A stretch of DNA of 64,000 bases from Paracoccaceae bacterium (GTDB lineage: Bacteria > Pseudomonadota > Alphaproteobacteria > Rhodobacterales > Rhodobacteraceae), in NCBI GenBank assembly GCA_041687395.1, contig JAWLCA010000013.1, forward strand, positions 51,470-115,469, in the 5' to 3' direction. This document shows, piece after piece, positions 1 through 55,673 of this stretch. The notes beneath the pieces were generated by a model, which was not told where the DNA came from, searched no databases, and saw only the letters and a program-made list of their open reading frames with translations. The first letter of the stretch is position 1; each line of letters starts with the position of its first letter. Position numbers and translations under genes: made by a program.

Positions 1-648
1 CGGGAAAACGCGGTCGAGTGAGGTTGCACCCCGCCCGACCAGGCGCCGCAGCGCGTCGTTGGCAAACAGCACGGTGCCGCTGCGGCTCGCGACCATCATC
101 GGCAGCGACAGGCCTTCGGCGCCTCGCGCCGCCACCATGGGATCCGACATCTCCTCCAACCGCCAGAGACAGCGGTCGCCGTCGATGCGATGCACACCCA
201 GCCGCGCGTGGCCGCGCCGGGTCAGCACATCCTCGCGCGCGGCGCCGCTGGAAAGGGCCGCTTCGCGCAGGCTGGCCAGAGCCGCGCCGGGTTCGGCAAA
301 ATAATCGCCCAAGGCATCGATCAGGGTATCGACACTGCTGCCAAACCTTTCCCGCGCCGCTGCGTTCCGGTAGCAGATCGCCCCGGCGGCATCGGTGCAG
401 AAGGTGGGGGCGAGGTCAGAGCCCACCAAGGCGTCCACCTGCTGGTCGCGCTTGCGCCGCACCACCCAGGCAGCGGCGGAAAACCCGGCCAGCGCCACGA
501 GCGTGCCGCCAACCGCTAGCAGCGCGAGCCGGGTCAGGTCATCGCCGACCAGCCCGCCGGCCAGAAGAAAAAGTCCCGCAGCCGTGCCAAGGGCCAGACC
601 CTCGGGAGCCTGAAACGCGACCCGCTGCGTCCAGCCGGGCCGCGACAT
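1..648 (-). CDS. Membrane-anchored PAS-type sensor protein, N-terminal part (gene continues beyond window start)
   Basis: Absent from the ORF track because it runs off the window. My minus-strand translation from the ATG (complement of 646-648) reads MSRPGWTQRVAFQAPEGLALGTAAGLFLLAGGLVGDDLTRLALLAVGGTLVALAGF. That gives two hydrophobic helices, followed by PAS-like segments (ICYRNAAARERFG; VLFANDALRRLVG). The output domain is not visible. Confidence 0.55.
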   Translation of the reverse strand, partial: MSRPGWTQRVAFQAPEGLALGTAAGLFLLAGGLVGDDLTRLALLAVGGTLVALAGFSAAAWVVRRKRDQQVDALVGSDLAPTFCTDAAGAICYRNAAARERFGSSVDTLIDALGDYFAEPGAALASLREAALSSGAAREDVLTRRGHARLGVHRIDGDRCLWRLEEMSDPMVAARGAEGLSLPMMVASRSGTVLFANDALRRLVGRGATSLDRVFP

Positions 649-720: not shown

Positions 721-1902
721 TTAAGCATGATCGGGCGGGCTGCGGCTCAGGATCGCCAGATAGAATCCGTCCCCAGTTGGCCCGGGCAGGAACCTTCGGT
801 CGCGCTGCAGCCGCCAGCTAGGGGTTCTGGTCAGGAAATCGTCGATCTGCTGCCGGTTCTCCTGATCAATGATCGAACAGGTCACGTAGGCCAGCATCCC
901 ACCCGGCGCCACGAAGCGCGCTGCCTGATCAAGGATGGCGGCCTGTATCTGCACCAGCCTGTCCAATCCCTTGGGCGACAGGCGCCACTTCGCCTCGGGA
1001 CTGCGCCGCCAGCTGCCGGAGCCAGAGCATGGTACGTCCACAAGCACGAGGTCAAAGGGCGCCGCGGCCTCGATCCCGGCGAGATCGACAAGCTGAACCG
1101 GCACGCCCGCCCGATCCGCCCGCGCGGGCAAATCCTGCAAGCGCCCCGGATCGGCATCATGTGCCCAGAGCCGCACCTGCGACCGCCCGGCCATGGCCAG
1201 CGTCTTGCCCCCGCCTCCGGCACAGAAATCCAGCACCCGCGCGCCGTCCTGCAGCGGCAGGTCCAGCACCACCGCCTGAGAGGCCGCATCCTGAAGTTCG
1301 ACCTGTCCGGACCGGTAGGCGGTGCCGTTCAGGATCCGTCGCGCGTTGCCCGTCACCTCCAGCGCGCCGGCGATGCCCGGCACCGGCCGCGTCTCGATCC
1401 CGTCGGCGGCCAGCGCGGCGACCGCCTCTGAAACATCCACCTTCACCGCATTGACACGCAGGAACACCGGCGCGCGATCCTGAAGGGCCGTCATCACCGG
1501 GGCAAAGTCCGCGCCCAGACTGTCCCGCAAGACCGGCTCCAACCAGTCGGGGCAGTCCAGCGCCTGCGCGTCCGACATCGGCGGGGGGACGTAGTTCCGC
1601 TCGGCCTCGGACAGTGTCGCGGGGGCGTAGCCGGTGCCGGTAAAGACCTCGGCAGGGTCGGTCATGGTCCGCCGCGACAGGCCCAGCATCAATCCGCGAC
1701 CGCTCTCCGCCCCGCCCAGGTGCGCGAGCGACCGGCGCCGGCGCATCGCCTCATAGGCCAGATCGCGGATCGCCGCCCGGTCGCCCGAACCGGCAAAACG
1801 GTTGCCCCGCGCCCAGGTCGTCAGCACCTTTTCCAGCGCCTCGCCCGCCAGCGCGCGATCCAGAATCCCGATGGCCGCCGCGACCCTCGCTTCAGGGGTC
1901 AA
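721..1902 (-). CDS. RsmB/NOP2/Sun-family SAM-dependent RNA (cytosine-C5) methyltransferase
   Basis: 393-aa ORF. It has the SAM-binding motif LDFCAGGGGKT and the catalytic region VDVPCSGSGSWRRSPEAKWRL typical of Sun/RsmB m5C methyltransferases. Confidence 0.85.
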   Translation of the reverse strand: MTPEARVAAAIGILDRALAGEALEKVLTTWARGNRFAGSGDRAAIRDLAYEAMRRRRSLAHLGGAESGRGLMLGLSRRTMTDPAEVFTGTGYAPATLSEAERNYVPPPMSDAQALDCPDWLEPVLRDSLGADFAPVMTALQDRAPVFLRVNAVKVDVSEAVAALAADGIETRPVPGIAGALEVTGNARRILNGTAYRSGQVELQDAASQAVVLDLPLQDGARVLDFCAGGGGKTLAMAGRSQVRLWAHDADPGRLQDLPARADRAGVPVQLVDLAGIEAAAPFDLVLVDVPCSGSGSWRRSPEAKWRLSPKGLDRLVQIQAAILDQAARFVAPGGMLAYVTCSIIDQENRQQIDDFLTRTPSWRLQRDRRFLPGPTGDGFYLAILSRSPPDHA

Positions 1903-10426: not shown

Positions 10427-11584
10427 ATGGCAGTTGTGCCGGTGACGTCAGCCGACCTCGACGCGTCCGAGGTCTCGTGGTTCGCGGCCCTCTGTTCCGA
10501 CGATTATCGATACCTCGGCGTACCCGACGGCGCGTTGCGCTCCAGTTGGGAGCATTGCTCGAACATTGTGAAAACCGCCGAAACGCAAGGCTTCCGCAAC
10601 ATCCTGTGCCCCTCGTCCTATCAGGTGGGCCAGGACACGCTGACCTTCGTCGCCGGGTGTGCCCCGATCACCAGCAAGATCAATCTGCTGGCGGCAATTC
10701 GCTGTGGAGAGCTTCATCCGATCATGCTGGCACGCACGGTCGCGACGCTGGATCACATGCTCAAGGGTAGGCTTACGCTGAACGTCATCTCATCCGACTT
10801 TCCCGGCGAAAAGGTCGACAGCGCCTTCCGTTACCAGCGCAGCCACGAGGTGGTGGAGATTCTGCGCCAAGCCTGGACACGCGACACCATCGATCACGAA
10901 GGCGAGGTCTATCAGTTCAAGGGTCTCACCACCGACCCGGCGAAACCCTATCAGCAGAACGGTGGCCCCCTGCTCTACTTTGGCGGCTACAGCCCCGATG
11001 CGCTGGAGTTGTGCGGCGCACAGTGCGACGTTTACCTGATGTGGCCCGAGACGAAGGAGCAACTGGCCGCACGCATGCAAGCGGTGCACGAACGCGCGGC
11101 CGCCCATGGGCGTACGCTCGACTATGGCCTACGGGTCCACATGATCGTCCGCGACACTGAAGCGGAGGCTAAGGAATATGCCGAAGAACTGGTGTCGAAG
11201 CTGGACGACGAATATGGTCGATTGATCCGCGAGCGCGCGCATGATGCGGGCAGCCTTGGCGTCTCGCATCAGGCGCGGGCGCGGGAACTTGCCGACCAGT
11301 TCGGCTACATCGAACCCCATTTGTGGACGGGCATCGGGCGGGCAAGATCGGGGTGCGGCGCAGCACTGGTCGGATCGGCGGATCAGGTTATGTCCGAAAT
11401 CGAGGCGTACCGGAAAATGGGCATTCGTGCCTTCATCTTCTCCGGCTATCCTCATCTTGACGAGTGCGAACACTTCGGACGACTCGTCATGCCGGAACTG
11501 AAAACCTGCTCGCTGCCCGAGGAATACGGGCGCGTGCCAATCGAAACCCCGGCGACGCCGCTGGGGGTGGGAGAGCGCCGCTGA
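10427..11584 (+). CDS. LLM-class flavin-dependent monooxygenase, alkanesulfonate monooxygenase (SsuD)-like; SmoC-like candidate
   Basis: 385 aa. Luciferase-like TIM-barrel blocks resemble SsuD (NILCPSSYQ..., LLAAIRCGELHPIMLARTVATLDHMLKGRLTLNVISSDFPGE). Confidence 0.8.
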   Translation: MAVVPVTSADLDASEVSWFAALCSDDYRYLGVPDGALRSSWEHCSNIVKTAETQGFRNILCPSSYQVGQDTLTFVAGCAPITSKINLLAAIRCGELHPIMLARTVATLDHMLKGRLTLNVISSDFPGEKVDSAFRYQRSHEVVEILRQAWTRDTIDHEGEVYQFKGLTTDPAKPYQQNGGPLLYFGGYSPDALELCGAQCDVYLMWPETKEQLAARMQAVHERAAAHGRTLDYGLRVHMIVRDTEAEAKEYAEELVSKLDDEYGRLIRERAHDAGSLGVSHQARARELADQFGYIEPHLWTGIGRARSGCGAALVGSADQVMSEIEAYRKMGIRAFIFSGYPHLDECEHFGRLVMPELKTCSLPEEYGRVPIETPATPLGVGERR

Positions 11585-12477
11585 TGGAACGGATCGAACT
11601 GGCCGAGGGGCTCGAATTCAGCCGCATCGTCTACGGGATGTGGCGGCTGGGCGACGATGTCGACCGCAGCGCGGCCCATGTCCAGGCCAAGATCGAAGCC
11701 TGTCTGGAGCAGGGCATCACCACCTTCGACCAAGCCGACATCTATGGCGATTACGAATCCGAGACGATCCTGGGTCAGTGCCTGAAGGATCAGCCCTCGC
11801 TTCGCGCAGGAATGGAAATCGTGACGAAATGCGACATCATGCTGATTTCGGGCAAGTACCCGGACCGGCGGGTGAAACATTACGACACCTCGGCGGCGCA
11901 TATCACCGCATCGGCCGAGGCGAGCCTCCGGCACATGGGGATCGAGACGATCGATGTGCTGCTGCTGCACCGGCCCGACCCGCTGATGGACCATCTGGAG
12001 ACCGGCCGCGCGCTGGACGATCTGGTGGACAGCGGCAAGGTGCGCGCGATCGGCGTCTCGAACTTCAAGCCGCACGACTGGAACCTGCTGCAATCGGCGA
12101 TGGAACAGCTGCTTGTCACCAACCAGATCGAGGTAAGCCTGCTGGCGCCGGAGGCTTTCACGAACGGCGACGTGGCATTCCTGCAGGAACGCGGCATCCC
12201 GCCCATGGCCTGGTCGCCGCTGGCTGGCGGACGCTTGTTCGAGCCGGAGAACGGCACACTGCGTGCCTCGCTGGCCGAGGTGGGTGAAAAATGGGGAGTG
12301 GACGAGACCGCCGTCGCCGTTGCGTGGCTTCTGGCGCATCCGTCCATGGTCCTGCCGGTCATGGGGACCAACAACCTTGATCGGATCCGACGGTTTTCGG
12401 ACGCGACCAAGGTCGCGATGGACCGCGAAACCTGGTTTGACCTCTACACGCTCGGCCTTGGGCACGAGGTGCCATGA
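11584..12477 (+). CDS. Aldo/keto reductase (YdhF-like); SmoB-like candidate
   Basis: Internal start MERIELAEGLEFSRIVYGMWRL at 11584, forming an ATGA overlap with the upstream stop. AKR blocks present: FDQADIYGDYESE, IDVLLLHRPD, IGVSNF. Confidence 0.85.
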   Translation: MERIELAEGLEFSRIVYGMWRLGDDVDRSAAHVQAKIEACLEQGITTFDQADIYGDYESETILGQCLKDQPSLRAGMEIVTKCDIMLISGKYPDRRVKHYDTSAAHITASAEASLRHMGIETIDVLLLHRPDPLMDHLETGRALDDLVDSGKVRAIGVSNFKPHDWNLLQSAMEQLLVTNQIEVSLLAPEAFTNGDVAFLQERGIPPMAWSPLAGGRLFEPENGTLRASLAEVGEKWGVDETAVAVAWLLAHPSMVLPVMGTNNLDRIRRFSDATKVAMDRETWFDLYTLGLGHEVP

Positions 12478-43161: not shown

Positions 43162-43350
43162 GATCCGTCACATCCCCATGTCGATTGAATGGCGCCACTG
43201 TAACCAGTTCGCAGAAGGCGCACAACAGCCCGTGACGGCGCGTCTAACACATTGTTTTGTATATACAAACCAATTCTGACCCACCCTTGACCCCGGGTGC
43301 GGCCGGGCATAGGTTGCGCGCGACCCGCCGCCGCCCGACCGGAGTGCCCC

Positions 43351-44511
<1,161 letters not shown>

Positions 44512-44631
44512 CGCGCCGCGCAGAGCGACCGGTTAAGGCTGCGTGAATCGACAGCGCGGAGATTTGGTCGCGCGTTAACCTGTTTCCTAACAAATCGTGG
44601 GGGTTTCTCTACGAATTGTTAAGGTTTCGGG

Positions 44632-46587
44632 ATGACGCCCACGACCCAGCCACTCGACTCATCCAACATCACCGTCTTGCAGCCGCGGATGGTCGGAAAT
44701 CTTGTGTCACGGCCGAGCAGCGGATCTGCGCTGATCGACCAGCAGCCGCAACTCGGCGACATCCTCGTAGAGATGGGCGCCATCTCGGCGACCGAGTTGG
44801 CACAGGCGCAGATCCTGCAGACGCGGCAGGACGTCCGCCTTGGGCGCGTCCTTCTTGCGCATGAGATGATATCCGAGGCCGCGCTGCTGCTTGCGCTCTC
44901 GCAGCAGCAAAAGACCCGGATCGTCGACCCGATGCAGGATCCGGCAGACCCTCGCCTGATCGATCTGCTGGGCGCGGATCGATGCCTGCGTGAGACGGTG
45001 CTGCCGTGGCGCTGTGCCGGTCAGGTGACGGTGATCGTCGTTGCCTGGCCCGAGGATTTTCATCGCCTCCAGCCCGAGCTTCAGGCCATCTTCGGGCCAG
45101 TGGTGATGGCCTTGGCCGCCGAGGCCAAAGTACAGGCGGCAATCCTCGTGCGACGTCGCACGGAACTCGGCCGACGGGCCGAAACCCGCACCACAGAATC
45201 CGAGAGCTGCCGGAACTGGCCCGCGGCGCGGGTACGTGGCGGCGTGGCCCTGACCTGTCTTCTGGCCGGCGTGATGGCTGCCTTCGCGCCCCTTTTGCTC
45301 GTCGGGGTGCTGACCCTGTGGACGGTACTCACGCTTCTGGCGACCACCCTGCTGAAAGCCGCAGCCATGGTGCTTCACCTTCGCCAGCGCACGGGCGACG
45401 ACACGTCGCCCAAGGCCCTGCCAGAGGTCGCCCGGCAGCCCACGATCTCGATCCTCGTTCCCTTGTTCAACGAAGCGGATATCGCCCCACGCCTGGTCGC
45501 GCGCCTGTCGCGCCTGAGCTATCCACGCGAACTGCTCGACATCCTGTTGATCGTCGAGGAAGACGACGCGACCACGCGCCGGGCTCTCGGCGAAGCCGAA
45601 CTGCCGCTATGGATGCGCATCGTGGTCGTCCCCGCGGCCGGTCAGTTGCGGACCAAGCCGCGTGCCCTGAACTTCGCGCTCGACTTTGCCCGTGGAAGCA
45701 TCGTTGGCGTCTACGATGCCGAGGACGCCCCCGAGCCGGTGCAATTGCAGCGCGTGGTGGAGCGGTTCCACCAGCGCGGATCGGAACTGGCCTGCGTTCA
45801 GGGCGTGCTCGATTTCTACAACCCGCGCACGAACTGGCTCTCTCGCTGCTTCACCATCGAATACGCCACCTGGTTCCGGATCGTGCTTCCTGGCCTGGAG
45901 CGGCTGAAGCTGCCCGTTCCCCTGGGCGGTACAACCCTGTTCTTTCGCCGGAATGTCCTGGAGGAACTGGGCGGCTGGGACGCCCATAACGTGACCGAGG
46001 ATGCCGATCTGGGAATCCGCCTGGCCCGGCACGGCTACCGGACCGAACTTCTGCCCACCGTGACCGAGGAAGAGGCGAACTGCCGCGCGCTCCCCTGGGT
46101 GCGGCAGCGGTCGCGCTGGCTGAAGGGCTACGCGATGACCTATGCTGTCCACATGCGCAATCCGCGCCTACTATTGCGGCAACTTGGATGGTGGCGCTTC
46201 GCAGGCGTCCAGATTCTATTTGGCGGAACGCTGACTCAGTACCTCATGGCCCCGCTCTTGTGGTCGTTTTGGCTGGTAGCCTTGGGGGTCTGGCACCCGC
46301 TGAACGGGCTCGTTCCGCCGGCGGCCTTCTGGCTGATCGGTGGCTTGTTCGTCGCCAGCGAGGCGGTGAACCTGGCCCTTGGGTGGGTCGCCACGGCAGA
46401 GCCGCGCCATCGCTTTCTCAGAATTTGGCTGCCGACGCTGCACCTCTATTTTCCGCTCGGCGCTCTGGCCGCGTACAAGGGCGCGTGGGAGATGCTCACA
46501 AACCCCTTTTACTGGGACAAGACGACACACGGCGTCTTCGACCGAACCAGCCCGGCCGCGCAGTCCGGCGATCAGCCCTTGGGCTGA
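44632..46587 (+). CDS. Processive family-2 glycosyltransferase (polysaccharide synthase) with N-terminal T2SSE_N/MshEN-type domain
   Basis: aa 40-92 read QLGDILVEMGAISATELAQAQILQ-TRQDV-RLGRVLLAHEMISEAALLLALSQQ, two 24-aa MshEN-like motifs with a 5-aa spacer. These are followed by 2 TM helices and a GT2 core (VYDAEDAP, TEDADLG, QRSRW), then at least 4 C-terminal TM helices. Confidence 0.8.
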   Translation: MTPTTQPLDSSNITVLQPRMVGNLVSRPSSGSALIDQQPQLGDILVEMGAISATELAQAQILQTRQDVRLGRVLLAHEMISEAALLLALSQQQKTRIVDPMQDPADPRLIDLLGADRCLRETVLPWRCAGQVTVIVVAWPEDFHRLQPELQAIFGPVVMALAAEAKVQAAILVRRRTELGRRAETRTTESESCRNWPAARVRGGVALTCLLAGVMAAFAPLLLVGVLTLWTVLTLLATTLLKAAAMVLHLRQRTGDDTSPKALPEVARQPTISILVPLFNEADIAPRLVARLSRLSYPRELLDILLIVEEDDATTRRALGEAELPLWMRIVVVPAAGQLRTKPRALNFALDFARGSIVGVYDAEDAPEPVQLQRVVERFHQRGSELACVQGVLDFYNPRTNWLSRCFTIEYATWFRIVLPGLERLKLPVPLGGTTLFFRRNVLEELGGWDAHNVTEDADLGIRLARHGYRTELLPTVTEEEANCRALPWVRQRSRWLKGYAMTYAVHMRNPRLLLRQLGWWRFAGVQILFGGTLTQYLMAPLLWSFWLVALGVWHPLNGLVPPAAFWLIGGLFVASEAVNLALGWVATAEPRHRFLRIWLPTLHLYFPLGALAAYKGAWEMLTNPFYWDKTTHGVFDRTSPAAQSGDQPLG

Positions 46588-47222
46588 TTGGCAGCATCCT
46601 GTTTCAATCGGGTCTCGAAGGCGCGGCTGATATGGGCCCGCAGGGCGTCATAGGCCGCATCGCCGTCTCCCGCCGCGATCGCGTCGACGATCCTGGCGTG
46701 TTCGTCGAGCGTCGCTTCTGTCCGGCCCTCGGCCGCGAGCGACGTCGTCGCCATCAACGCCATCGAGCGATAGACGAGGTCGAGTTGCTGGACCAGGTAG
46801 CGGTTGTGAGAGGCGAGGTGGATCTGCTTGTGAAACCGCCGGTTGGCCTGTGACATGGCCCGCGGGTCGCCGGTCAGCGCGCGGTCTTCGTCAACCATGT
46901 GGCGCAGCACCCGCACCTCTTCCTCGGTCGCGTGTTTCGCGGCCAGCCGCGCGGCCAGACCTTCCAGTTCGGCGCGAACCACGTAAAGTTCCGCCAATTG
47001 ATTGTGGTCGAGCGAGGCGACGATCAGGCTGCGTCCGTCGCGCGCCAGCATCGACTGCGTCTCAAGCCGCTGCAAAGCCTCGCGCACCGGGGTGCGTGAG
47101 ACGCCGAACCGGTCGGCCAGTTCCGATTCCACCAACCGGTCGCCCGGACGATAAACCCCGGTATCGATCGCATCAAGGATCAGGTGATAGGCATCCTTCT
47201 GGGCGGGCTTCGCGTCACGCAT
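46572..47222 (-). CDS. GntR/FadR-family transcriptional regulator (wHTH + FCD)
   Basis: Start MRDAKPAQKDAYHLILDAIDTGVYRPGDRLVESELADRFGVSRTPVREAL, with a GGAGGAA SD. The 3' end overlaps the convergent GT2 gene by 16 nt. Confidence 0.85.
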   Translation of the reverse strand: MRDAKPAQKDAYHLILDAIDTGVYRPGDRLVESELADRFGVSRTPVREALQRLETQSMLARDGRSLIVASLDHNQLAELYVVRAELEGLAARLAAKHATEEEVRVLRHMVDEDRALTGDPRAMSQANRRFHKQIHLASHNRYLVQQLDLVYRSMALMATTSLAAEGRTEATLDEHARIVDAIAAGDGDAAYDALRAHISRAFETRLKQDAANQPKG

Positions 47223-47242
47223 TGTATTCCTCCGCATACAAT
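47221..47242. promoter_or_regulatory. Inverted repeat overlapping the GntR/FCD start/SD (candidate auto-operator)
   Basis: ATTGTAT-tcctccgc-ATACAAT (7-bp arms). Confidence 0.35.
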
Positions 47243-54122: not shown

Positions 54123-55669
54123 GTGATGGCTGTGCCTGCGACAACCAATGTCGCCGAACCGGCAGAGGATCTGAACGATCCGGCCCGCGTTTCGCTTCTG
54201 AACCACGACCTGCGCGCCGCCGTCTCGGACATCATGGGCGGCTTGCGCCTGATCGACCAGACAACGCTCGACCCTGCGACCCGGCTGCAACTGGAACGTG
54301 TGCGCACGGCGGCCGAGGGGCTGGCGCGGCTGATGGAACTGGCCCTGACCGCGATGGGCGGCGCGGACGAGTTCACCGACCAGCCGCCACGCACCATCCA
54401 GCTCGATCGTTTCCTGCGTGATGTCGAGATGCGCTGGAGCGGACGCGCGCGCGAACAGGGGCTGAGCTTCGAGCTGATGCAGGCCGCGGATCTGCCGCCG
54501 CTGCTGATGATCGACCGCATCGCGCTGGAACGGGTTCTGTCCAACATCCTGTCGAACGCAATCAAGTATACCGACGCCGGCACGGTTTCGATGCAGGTCC
54601 AGTGTCCACCGGGCGGCGGGTTGCAGTTCATCGTCCGCGACGCGGGGCCGGGATTTTCCAGGGCAGCGCTTGCACAGCTTTTTCGCCGCGACGGTCGTCC
54701 GCGTGGCACCATCAAACCGGGAACGGGATTGGGCATGCATATTTCACACAAGATGACACGGCGGCTGGGTGGAGAGCTGGAAGTGCGCAACGCCGACGAT
54801 GGCCGGGGCGCGATCGTCACGTTGACGCTTCCGCCCGACGCCATTGCCGCCGATACCATCGACCTGCCCGCCAACGGGCCGACCAACCTGCCCGATCTGA
54901 CGCGCCAGCGCGTTCTGGTGGCCGAGGACAACCCGACCAACCAGGCCATCCTTGGCCAGATGCTGACGCGTCTGGGCGCCGAGTTCGAGATCGCGGGAGA
55001 CGGCGCGCAGGCCCTGCACCTGCTGGAGCGCGAGCATTTCGACCTTGCCCTTGTCGATATCGAGATGCCGTTCCTGTCGGGGATCGAGGTCATCCGGGCG
55101 CTGCGCGCGCGCACCGATGCACAGGGCCAGATCCCGGTGCTGGCGGTGACCGCCTATGTGCTGCGCGCCAACCGCGAGGCGATCTTTGCCGCCGGCGCCG
55201 ACGGGATCCTCGCCAAGCCGGTGACCGGGATCGACCCCTTCGGTCAGGCGATTGCCGAAGTCGTGCGCAAGTCCGGCGCTCCGGCGGCTGCCGACGGCAC
55301 CGCCGCGACGGCCGACGACAGCGGCTTCGATCACGCGCGCTTCCAAGGCCTCATGGCCGTCGCCGGCCCCGAGGGCGCCCGCGAACTGCTGGACCGCGTG
55401 GTCGAGGATCTGCGCCGCGTCGAACGCGAGATCGTGCAGGCCCTGGCCGAGGGCGACCGGGCCGAGATCCGCGCCCAGACCCACGTGCTGATCGCCGTCT
55501 CGGGCGCGGTCGGTGCGGTGCGTCTGCAGGGGATGGCGCAAGAGCTGAACGCCCGCGCGCACGATCGCGACGCCCCCGACCTGACCACCCTGGGAGAGGA
55601 ATTGTTAACCGAACTGGATCAGATGATCGTATTCCTGACCCTCAAGCGCGGGTCCGGCGGAGATTCAGG

Positions 55670-55673
<4 letters not shown>
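54123..55673 (+). CDS. Hybrid histidine kinase HisKA-HATPase-REC-HPt lacking any recognisable input domain
   Basis: The H-box (LNHDLRAAVSDIMGG) begins about aa 26 with no TM helices. HATPase G-boxes present (RDAGPGF, GTGLGMHI). REC domain RVLVAEDNPTNQ...DIEMP. HPt motif THVLIAVSGAVGA. Confidence 0.85.

Follow-up and report, generated by a model that had tools for sequence, protein, structure and literature searches.

The open reading frame (ORF) at 44632-46587 of a 64,000-nucleotide (64-kb) stretch of Paracoccaceae bacterium DNA (contig JAWLCA010000013.1; the whole stretch is called the window below) encodes a membrane glycosyltransferase of family 2 (GT2) with a built-in MshEN sensor domain. 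This architecture is real, although it is not new. In the reading that we favour, and to which we give as a whole a probability of roughly 0.55, MshEN would be a receptor for cyclic di-GMP (c-di-GMP) that switches on an inner-membrane, processive GT2 of the XagB type with a glycan as its product. The ORF belongs to the 'MshEN - Glyco_trans_2_3' (XagB-type) family as its Rhodobacterales orthologue. Its enzyme would be an inner-membrane GT2 of the processive D,DxD,TED,QxxRW kind, whose N-terminal MshEN would lie in the cytoplasm and receive c-di-GMP. The ligand-bound domain would then act allosterically on the catalytic domain, activating rather than inhibiting it, as in Escherichia coli NfrB, where the modules stand in the opposite order. 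The product would most likely be a beta-linked surface or periplasmic glycan. Control of the family would be dual, by CtrA at transcription and by c-di-GMP at the level of activity, with a CtrA box that is degenerate in the window.

MshEN domain and glycosyltransferase core

The N-terminus is recognised by two hidden Markov models (HMMs). NCBIfam NF053729 ('c-di-GMP_motif, MshE-related') aligned over its full length (positions 1-53 of 53) with residues 40-92, scoring 42.7 bits against a cut-off of 38 (E = 3.6e-11), and Pfam MshEN (PF05157) matched residues 97-171 with 31.4 bits against a curated cut-off of 23.1. Both models name MshEN, and the HMM search assigned the N-terminus to no other fold. 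An AlphaFold model of residues 30-190, with a predicted local distance difference test (pLDDT) value of 94, was compared with the PDB by Foldseek. Its best match was 5HTL, the structure of MshE with c-di-GMP (target-normalised template modelling score (TM-score) 0.85, root mean square deviation 2.1 Å, 138 columns, 27% identity), followed by the c-di-GMP-bound GSPII-B domains of PilF. The HMM search and the structure comparison agree on the MshEN / T2SSE_N-like domain that the original prediction had placed here, and by profile and modelled fold the N-terminus is a genuine MshEN domain.

A full-length AlphaFold2 model was built on 120 homologues (mean pLDDT 90.9, predicted TM-score 0.90). It contains, in order, a four-helix bundle (residues 41-93) and an alpha/beta subdomain (107-185), which together correspond to the MshEN_N plus T2SSE_N1 fold, a transmembrane segment (198-254), a GT-A domain and a series of helices (486-623). 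Several Pfam GT2 models match residues 270-554 (E about 1e-26), and all 120 homologues share D312, D362, E364, D365, T455, E456, D457, Q492, R493, R495 and W496. The first PDB matches of the full model are BcsA, hyaluronan synthases (HAS) and chitin synthases (CHS), with TM-scores of 0.4-0.6 to BcsA and HAS. The predicted succession of two transmembrane helices and a GT2 core is supported by hydropathy, the AlphaFold2 helices, the positions of DAED, TED and QRSRW and the Pfam GT2 matches, and the multi-helix membrane domain expected at the C-terminus is found as AlphaFold2 helices at 511-623, after the GT core. This C-terminal membrane region has a hydropathy peak at 556-588 and aligns weakly with NfrB residues 340-470. 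Judged by its motifs and its model, the protein is a GT2 integrated in the membrane, and its motifs are those of the processive type. The BcsA family models remained below their cut-offs (TIGR03030, 58.5 against 699 bits; NF008558, 45.2 against 992 bits), and so did TIGR03937 for poly-N-acetylglucosamine synthases of the PgaC/IcaA type (54.1 against 422 bits).

The c-di-GMP motif and the C-terminal WDKTxH

MshEN domains, as defined on Vibrio cholerae MshE, bind c-di-GMP by two 24-residue stretches, RLGxx(L/V/I)(L/V/I)xxG(L/V/I)(L/V/I)xxxxLxxxLxxQ, with a 5-residue spacer between them. The ORF boundaries and the reading of residues 40-92 as QLGDILVEMGAISATELAQAQILQ / TRQDV / RLGRVLLAHEMISEAALLLALSQQ in the original prediction match our data exactly. 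The HMMER alignment with MshE of Vibrio cholerae (VcMshE) is gap-free, exact in register and spacer length, and shows that both LG dipeptides, L56, L85, L89, Q63 and Q92 are kept. At position 1 of motif I, Q40 replaces Arg9, where the family has mostly Pro and NfrB likewise Pro. At position 21 of the same motif, Q60 replaces Leu29, a guanine-stacking Leu of VcMshE, the family having Leu in 74 of 120 members. The sole deviation in motif II is E78 in place of Gly47 (position 10), where G (70), D (18), Q (12) and N (10) are found among the 120. The substitutions of R by Q in motif I and of G by E in motif II had been described correctly, while Q60 in motif I had been missed. Wang et al. (2016, Nat Commun) measured an affinity loss of less than 5-fold for changes at Arg9, Asp12 or Gln32 of MshE and of more than 10-fold on changing any conserved hydrophobic residue of the motif, so Q60 is a real risk to c-di-GMP affinity. 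The caution originally voiced on binding competence was justified and, because Q60 was overlooked, slightly understated.

Neither motif of the window protein passes the relaxed regular expression, with Q40, Q60 and E78 deviating, and just 16 of the 120 relatives satisfy the full relaxed tandem expression of Wang et al. The expression is therefore too brittle, and we used per-position scoring over 22 relaxed key positions instead, calibrated on NfrB and VcMshE and covering 229 family members. VcMshE met all 22 positions, NfrB, a proven binder, 20 and the window protein 19. Since 99 of the 229 members score 19 or less, the window protein is ordinary for its family, and from its sequence the binding of c-di-GMP is plausible despite Q40, Q60 and E78.

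Alternatively, the MshEN fold may have been kept while c-di-GMP binding was lost in the window copy, and perhaps in its sub-lineage, leaving a structural or docking module in an enzyme that is controlled otherwise. We consider this somewhat unlikely. Three motif departures speak for it, among them the polar Q60 at a guanine-stacking position, which is occupied by Lys in the closest relative (P0002, 76% identical) and by Leu in P0003; however, the critical glycines G42 and G71 and five of the six stacking leucines are retained, and the window copy still exceeds the curated cut-off of the NCBIfam motif model. Although XpsE and many other MshEN domains have lost binding through such changes, as Wang et al. 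note, L-to-A variants of MshE are still stabilised by c-di-GMP, and NfrB binds it despite a residue other than Gly at position 10 of its motif I. A docking role would have a precedent in the N-domains of PilB, which share the fold and bind proteins (Foldseek also matched the PilB-PilZ complexes 7lko and 7lkm), and a lineage with relaxed regulation would also fit the degenerate CtrA box of the window.

The favoured reading, with MshEN as an activating receptor, draws on NfrB, a c-di-GMP-activated GT2 synthase that makes the phage N4 receptor glycan in E. coli. NfrB binds c-di-GMP with a Kd of about 1 µM, and both its GT and its MshEN sites are required. BLASTP aligned residues 272-633 of the window protein with NfrB 71-475 at 25% identity, the alignment ending in an identical WDKTTH. 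None of W628, D629, K630, T631, H633 and G634 varies among the 120 homologues, and across the family the median distance between the WDKTxH motif and the C-terminus is 17 residues. In NfrB (locus L085), WDKTTH occupies residues 470-475, 13 residues ahead of its MshEN motif I. The family profile matched the NfrB MshEN domain with a probability of 94%, and the start 'RPLGQILL' is common to both. The simplest reading of these alignments would be that GT2 and MshEN were paired once in an ancestor and that the sensor then changed termini.

Gating motifs are present in BcsA (FxVTxK) and in HAS and CHS (WGT), and WDKTxH may, by its likeness to these, be a gating loop. The hhalign alignment of the family with E. 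coli BcsA ends at residue 514, short of WDKTxH. The shared WDKTxH and the reversed module order relative to NfrB amount to a natural experiment on the control of a GT2 active site by MshEN.

Family, genomic setting and CtrA box

In a genome scan with one genome per species, the gene was present in at least 595 species-level genomes. Labels were read for the best 80 of these, and nearly all were of Rhodobacterales type (Sulfitobacter, Ruegeria, Phaeobacter, Roseovarius, Paracoccus, Rhodobacter, Rhodovulum), the rest being metagenome-assembled genomes with broader labels. The phylogenetic survey proposed with the original prediction therefore finds the MshEN-GT2 fusion to be widespread, with hundreds of related bacteria of sea and soil sharing it. 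A word-indexed search retrieved 7,964 proteins, the best 120 being 52-76% identical and those with names mostly from Paracoccaceae/Rhodobacteraceae. An exhaustive search of cluster representatives gave 2,362 at E ≤1e-30, and more than 100 among the matches listed align over about residues 38-640. Some family variants carry 2, 3, 5 or 6 tandem MshEN domains, or a REC domain and two MshEN, ahead of the same GT2 (those with 3-6 tandem domains or with REC are P0243, P0244, P0241 and P0236), which argues that MshEN is a regulatory input. The window copy is a slightly degenerate member of this widespread orthologue group.

The genomic position of the gene is fixed. The context set comprised 84 orthologous Rhodobacterales loci (L001-L084; 1.31 Mb in total), in which carA lies directly upstream in 81 and the GntR/FCD regulator convergently downstream in 77, with yqeY (74 loci), a HAD hydrolase (69) and a UbiH-like gene (68) nearby. 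The neighbours named in the original prediction, carA and a convergent, overlapping GntR/FCD regulator, were recovered from the ORFs and Pfam (Table 1) and are conserved across the set. No export, modification or hydrolase gene is adjacent, as predicted, in the window or in the 84 loci, and homologues of XagA, XagC, XagD, NfrA and YbcH were found in neither (XagA, XagC and XagD by tblastn). The other scanned predicted genes of the window are housekeeping or metabolic, with none for export. The carA ORF as listed begins at a GTG about 30 codons ahead of the Pfam domain, so the true start is probably farther downstream. A 516-aa hybrid histidine kinase with HATPase_c and receiver domains (54123-55673, plus strand) is the only histidine-kinase/receiver-domain protein found in the window. 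Between genera, orthologues of the GT protein in the 84 loci share only 45-60% identity, those of CarA and GntR mostly 70-85%; this faster evolution might fit a surface- or phage-exposed function.

In all 84 loci the gene is an orphan in housekeeping surroundings, which would also suit an enzyme that is not an exopolysaccharide (EPS) synthase and makes a membrane glycolipid, for example a glycosyl-diacylglycerol, or a short or periplasmic oligosaccharide, products for which no export partners would be needed. We regard such an activity as quite unlikely. It is favoured by a Pfam Glyco_transf_21 match above cut-off and by the few transmembrane helices predicted, but the membrane part of NfrB, an accepted EPS synthase, is similarly small. 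Structurally, the model fits the archaeal membrane mannosyltransferase PcManGT well (target-normalised TM-score 0.59), whereas the best full-length matches are channel-forming polymer synthases. The label 'Beta-monoglucosyldiacylglycerol synthase', attached to a Sulfitobacter orthologue and to an XagB-like gene of iron oxidisers (PMC4643136), points the same way as PcManGT; however, these names are automatic annotations (as on the Sulfitobacter protein P0398), and the label is probably misleading and propagated across databases. XagB itself is genetically tied to EPS-dependent biofilm and neighbours a GH113 hydrolase, which argues against this alternative.

Upstream of the GT gene, the carA-GT spacer contains 12 TTAA per kb against 0.59 per kb overall. 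The context set holds 93 perfect TTAA-N7-TTAA elements, 92 of them just upstream of the GT gene, and 81 of the loci have at least one there, about 30-400 bp before the GT match. The consensus is GTTAACC-N5-GTTAACC, with a median of 44 bp between the end of the box and the first in-frame start codon. In its sequence, this conserved upstream box is a canonical CtrA site, and because it is promoter-proximal in most relatives, the family is predicted to be controlled by CtrA in transcription and by c-di-GMP in activity. The window is one of the few exceptions, with no perfect box upstream of the GT gene but a one-mismatch box and two half-sites. Its sole perfect TTAA-N7-TTAA (TTAACCGGCCGTTAA) is at 710-724 and adjoins the 3' end of an RsmB-like methyltransferase gene (721-1902, minus strand).

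These degenerate regulatory features, namely the motif substitutions and the imperfect CtrA box, are what a decaying or non-functional gene copy might show relative to its family. Decay is nevertheless extremely improbable: the reading frame is intact and of full length, all invariant family residues are retained (by construction of the 120-homologue comparison), G+C content at third codon positions (0.80) is typical of the neighbouring genes and the structure model is confident.

Table 1. Features of the MshEN-GT2 gene and its immediate surroundings (window coordinates)
Feature	Residues	Position	Strand	Evidence or remark
Whole ORF: MshEN - two transmembrane helices - GT2 - C-terminal membrane helices	651 aa	44632..46587	+	ATG at 44632; stop included
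MshEN_N motif I, QLGDILVEMGAISATELAQAQILQ	40-63	44749..44820	+	Gapless alignment to VcMshE R9-Q32
Five-residue spacer, TRQDV	64-68	44821..44835	+	
MshEN_N motif II, RLGRVLLAHEMISEAALLLALSQQ	69-92	44836..44907	+	Aligned to VcMshE R38-Q61
MshEN_C / T2SSE_N1-like alpha/beta subdomain	97-171	44920..45144	+	Pfam PF05157; strands 123-129, 132-137, 157-161 and flanking helices in model
Two N-terminal transmembrane helices	198-254	45223..45393	+	Hydropathy block 200-251; AlphaFold2 helices 198-218, 220-254
GT2 (GT-A) catalytic domain	270-498	45439..46125	+	Pfam PF13641, PF13632, PF00535
GT2 motif EEDD	309-312		+	
GT2 motif DAED	362-365	45715-45726	+	
GT2 motif TED	455-457	45994-46002	+	
GT2 motif QRSRW	492-496	46105-46119	+	
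C-terminal membrane region	511-623	46162..46500	+	AlphaFold2 helices 511-518, 520-538, 540-550, 563-587, 591-623; pLDDT mostly >90
Conserved C-terminal motif WDKTTH	628-633	46513..46530	+	Invariance in 120 homologues
Upstream intergenic CtrA-box-like elements		44533..44622	+	One-mismatch scan
One-mismatch CtrA box, TTAAGGCTGCGTGAA		44533-44547	+	
TTAACC half-site		44575-44580	+	
TTAA half-site		44619-44622	+	
carA (carbamoyl-phosphate synthase small chain), upstream neighbour		43297..44511	+	Pfam CPSase_sm_chain and GATase
GntR/FCD regulator, convergent		46572..47237	-	Pfam GntR and FCD; 16-nt 3' overlap with the GT ORF

Weight of the evidence and known systems

Several observations weigh against the reading that we favour. 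The AlphaFold2 model predicts two N-terminal and about two C-terminal transmembrane helices, plus amphipathic helices, whereas HAS and BcsA have 6-8, BcsA having 8; with about four, it is doubtful that the enzyme forms a channel unaided. No linked outer-membrane or periplasmic partner was found among the scanned predicted genes of the window or in the 84 loci, and no GGDEF or EAL gene is found among the former. At the ligand site, the Leu29-equivalent stacking position holds the polar Q60, few relatives satisfy the full tandem expression, and no test of c-di-GMP binding by any GT2 with an N-terminal MshEN was found in the literature. Of the one-gene synthase/translocase originally proposed, the stand-alone locus holds and is conserved over the 84 loci, but a one-gene system is not established, as relatives of the XagB type have partner genes. 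In the favoured reading, the enzyme would be processive and would translocate its polymer.

The finding mostly rediscovers an architecture that was catalogued in 2016. Its value is that nearly all Rhodobacterales, ecologically important marine roseobacters included, appear to have this gene at a fixed position, and no experimental study of the orthologue group was found in the literature. If the favoured reading is true, production of a surface glycan would be coupled through one enzyme both to c-di-GMP and to the motile/sessile switch of CtrA, and this could explain biofilm and phage-susceptibility phenotypes in Rhodobacterales. Some published observations touch on this. In E. coli, the nfr operon and flagella share their regulation. 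CtrA-pathway mutants of Roseobacter denitrificans show up-regulated 'xagB' and more biofilm, and RD1_1962, an 'NfrB-homologous' glycosyltransferase, is the other main phage-resistance locus (PMC13392355). In a homologue search seeded with the Sulfitobacter delicatus orthologue, R. denitrificans was not among the matches listed; RD1_1962 and the R. denitrificans 'xagB' are at most candidate orthologues of the window gene. A bolder version, which we think unlikely, would make the protein a domain-permuted relative of NfrB whose free WDKTxH loop serves as a gate under the control of MshEN in cis; as an orphan enzyme of the CtrA regulon, it would integrate CtrA (motile/sessile) and c-di-GMP signals for a surface glycan that doubles as a phage receptor, possibly that of RD1_1962. 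Further work would best be directed at the CtrA box kept across the loci, the module order inverted with respect to NfrB and a possible connection with phage susceptibility.

Among systems with a known sensor, V. cholerae MshE and Thermus thermophilus PilF have N-domains with the same fold and the same 24+5+24 motif as the window protein. However, those domains regulate a secretion or pilus ATPase, while here MshEN is fused to a glycosyltransferase. BcsA is c-di-GMP-activated and has the processive GT2 core in common (hhalign probability 96% over residues 268-514; top Foldseek match), but it senses c-di-GMP through a C-terminal PilZ domain and needs BcsB, whereas the window protein has no PilZ match in Pfam. 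The use of MshEN instead of PilZ, which the original prediction implied to be novel, was already published, as an architecture by Wang et al. (2016) and experimentally for NfrB. NfrB shares both modules in reversed order, its MshEN coming after WDKTTH; it differs also in an extra C-terminal region (745 aa in total) and in its nfrBA-ybcH operon with an outer-membrane partner. Assignment to NfrB itself was rejected: the equivalog model NF008411 gave 39.8 bits, from the MshEN part only, against a cut-off of 1170, the order is reversed, and homologues of NfrA and YbcH are absent from the window and the 84 loci.

XagB of the Xanthomonas xagABCD operon (KEGG 'glycosyltransferase XagB'; XCC0678) is a full-length homologue with the same MshEN-TM-GT2 order, TM denoting the transmembrane helices. 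The X. sacchari protein P0223 (643 aa) is 37% identical over query residues 38-637 (E = 8e-105), and an XCC0678 fragment is 57% identical to P0223. Some Rhodobacterales members carry the name 'glycosyltransferase XagB'. XCC0678 is listed by Wang et al. with MshEN at residues 14-92, and no literature was found that links XagB with MshEN. XagB-dependent biofilm is raised on deletion of RpfG, an HD-GYP c-di-GMP phosphodiesterase, and the rpfG mutant of X. oryzae depends on both xagA and xagB for its biofilm. The Xanthomonas and Halopseudomonas homologues belong to a four-gene cluster, between 316-aa and 504-aa proteins without a Pfam match and followed by a GH113 hydrolase (XagD; 11376-12347 in locus L086, 11346-12323 in L087). 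GH113 is a beta-mannanase family; this hints that the polymer is mannose-configured and would agree with the N-acetylmannosamine proposed for NfrB. These operon partners are absent from the window and the 84 Rhodobacterales loci; since the XagB relatives are clustered and xagA is needed in X. oryzae, unlinked partners may exist elsewhere in the source genome.

The closest published counterpart is Rsph17029_0522 of Rhodobacter sphaeroides. Supplementary Table 4 of Wang et al. gives it as the example of 'MshEN - Glyco_trans_2_3', found in Actinobacteria, Firmicutes and Proteobacteria, beside 'Glyco_trans_2_3 - MshEN' with E. coli NfrB as the example, and Supplementary Table 3 has the R. sphaeroides protein in the binders' column. 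It is a bioinformatic catalogue entry alone and has motif deviations of its own, such as PLAD in motif II, but its domain order, bacterial order and N-terminal 'PLG...' register are those of the window protein. From a 75-residue fragment and order-wide synteny, the two very probably form one orthologous group.

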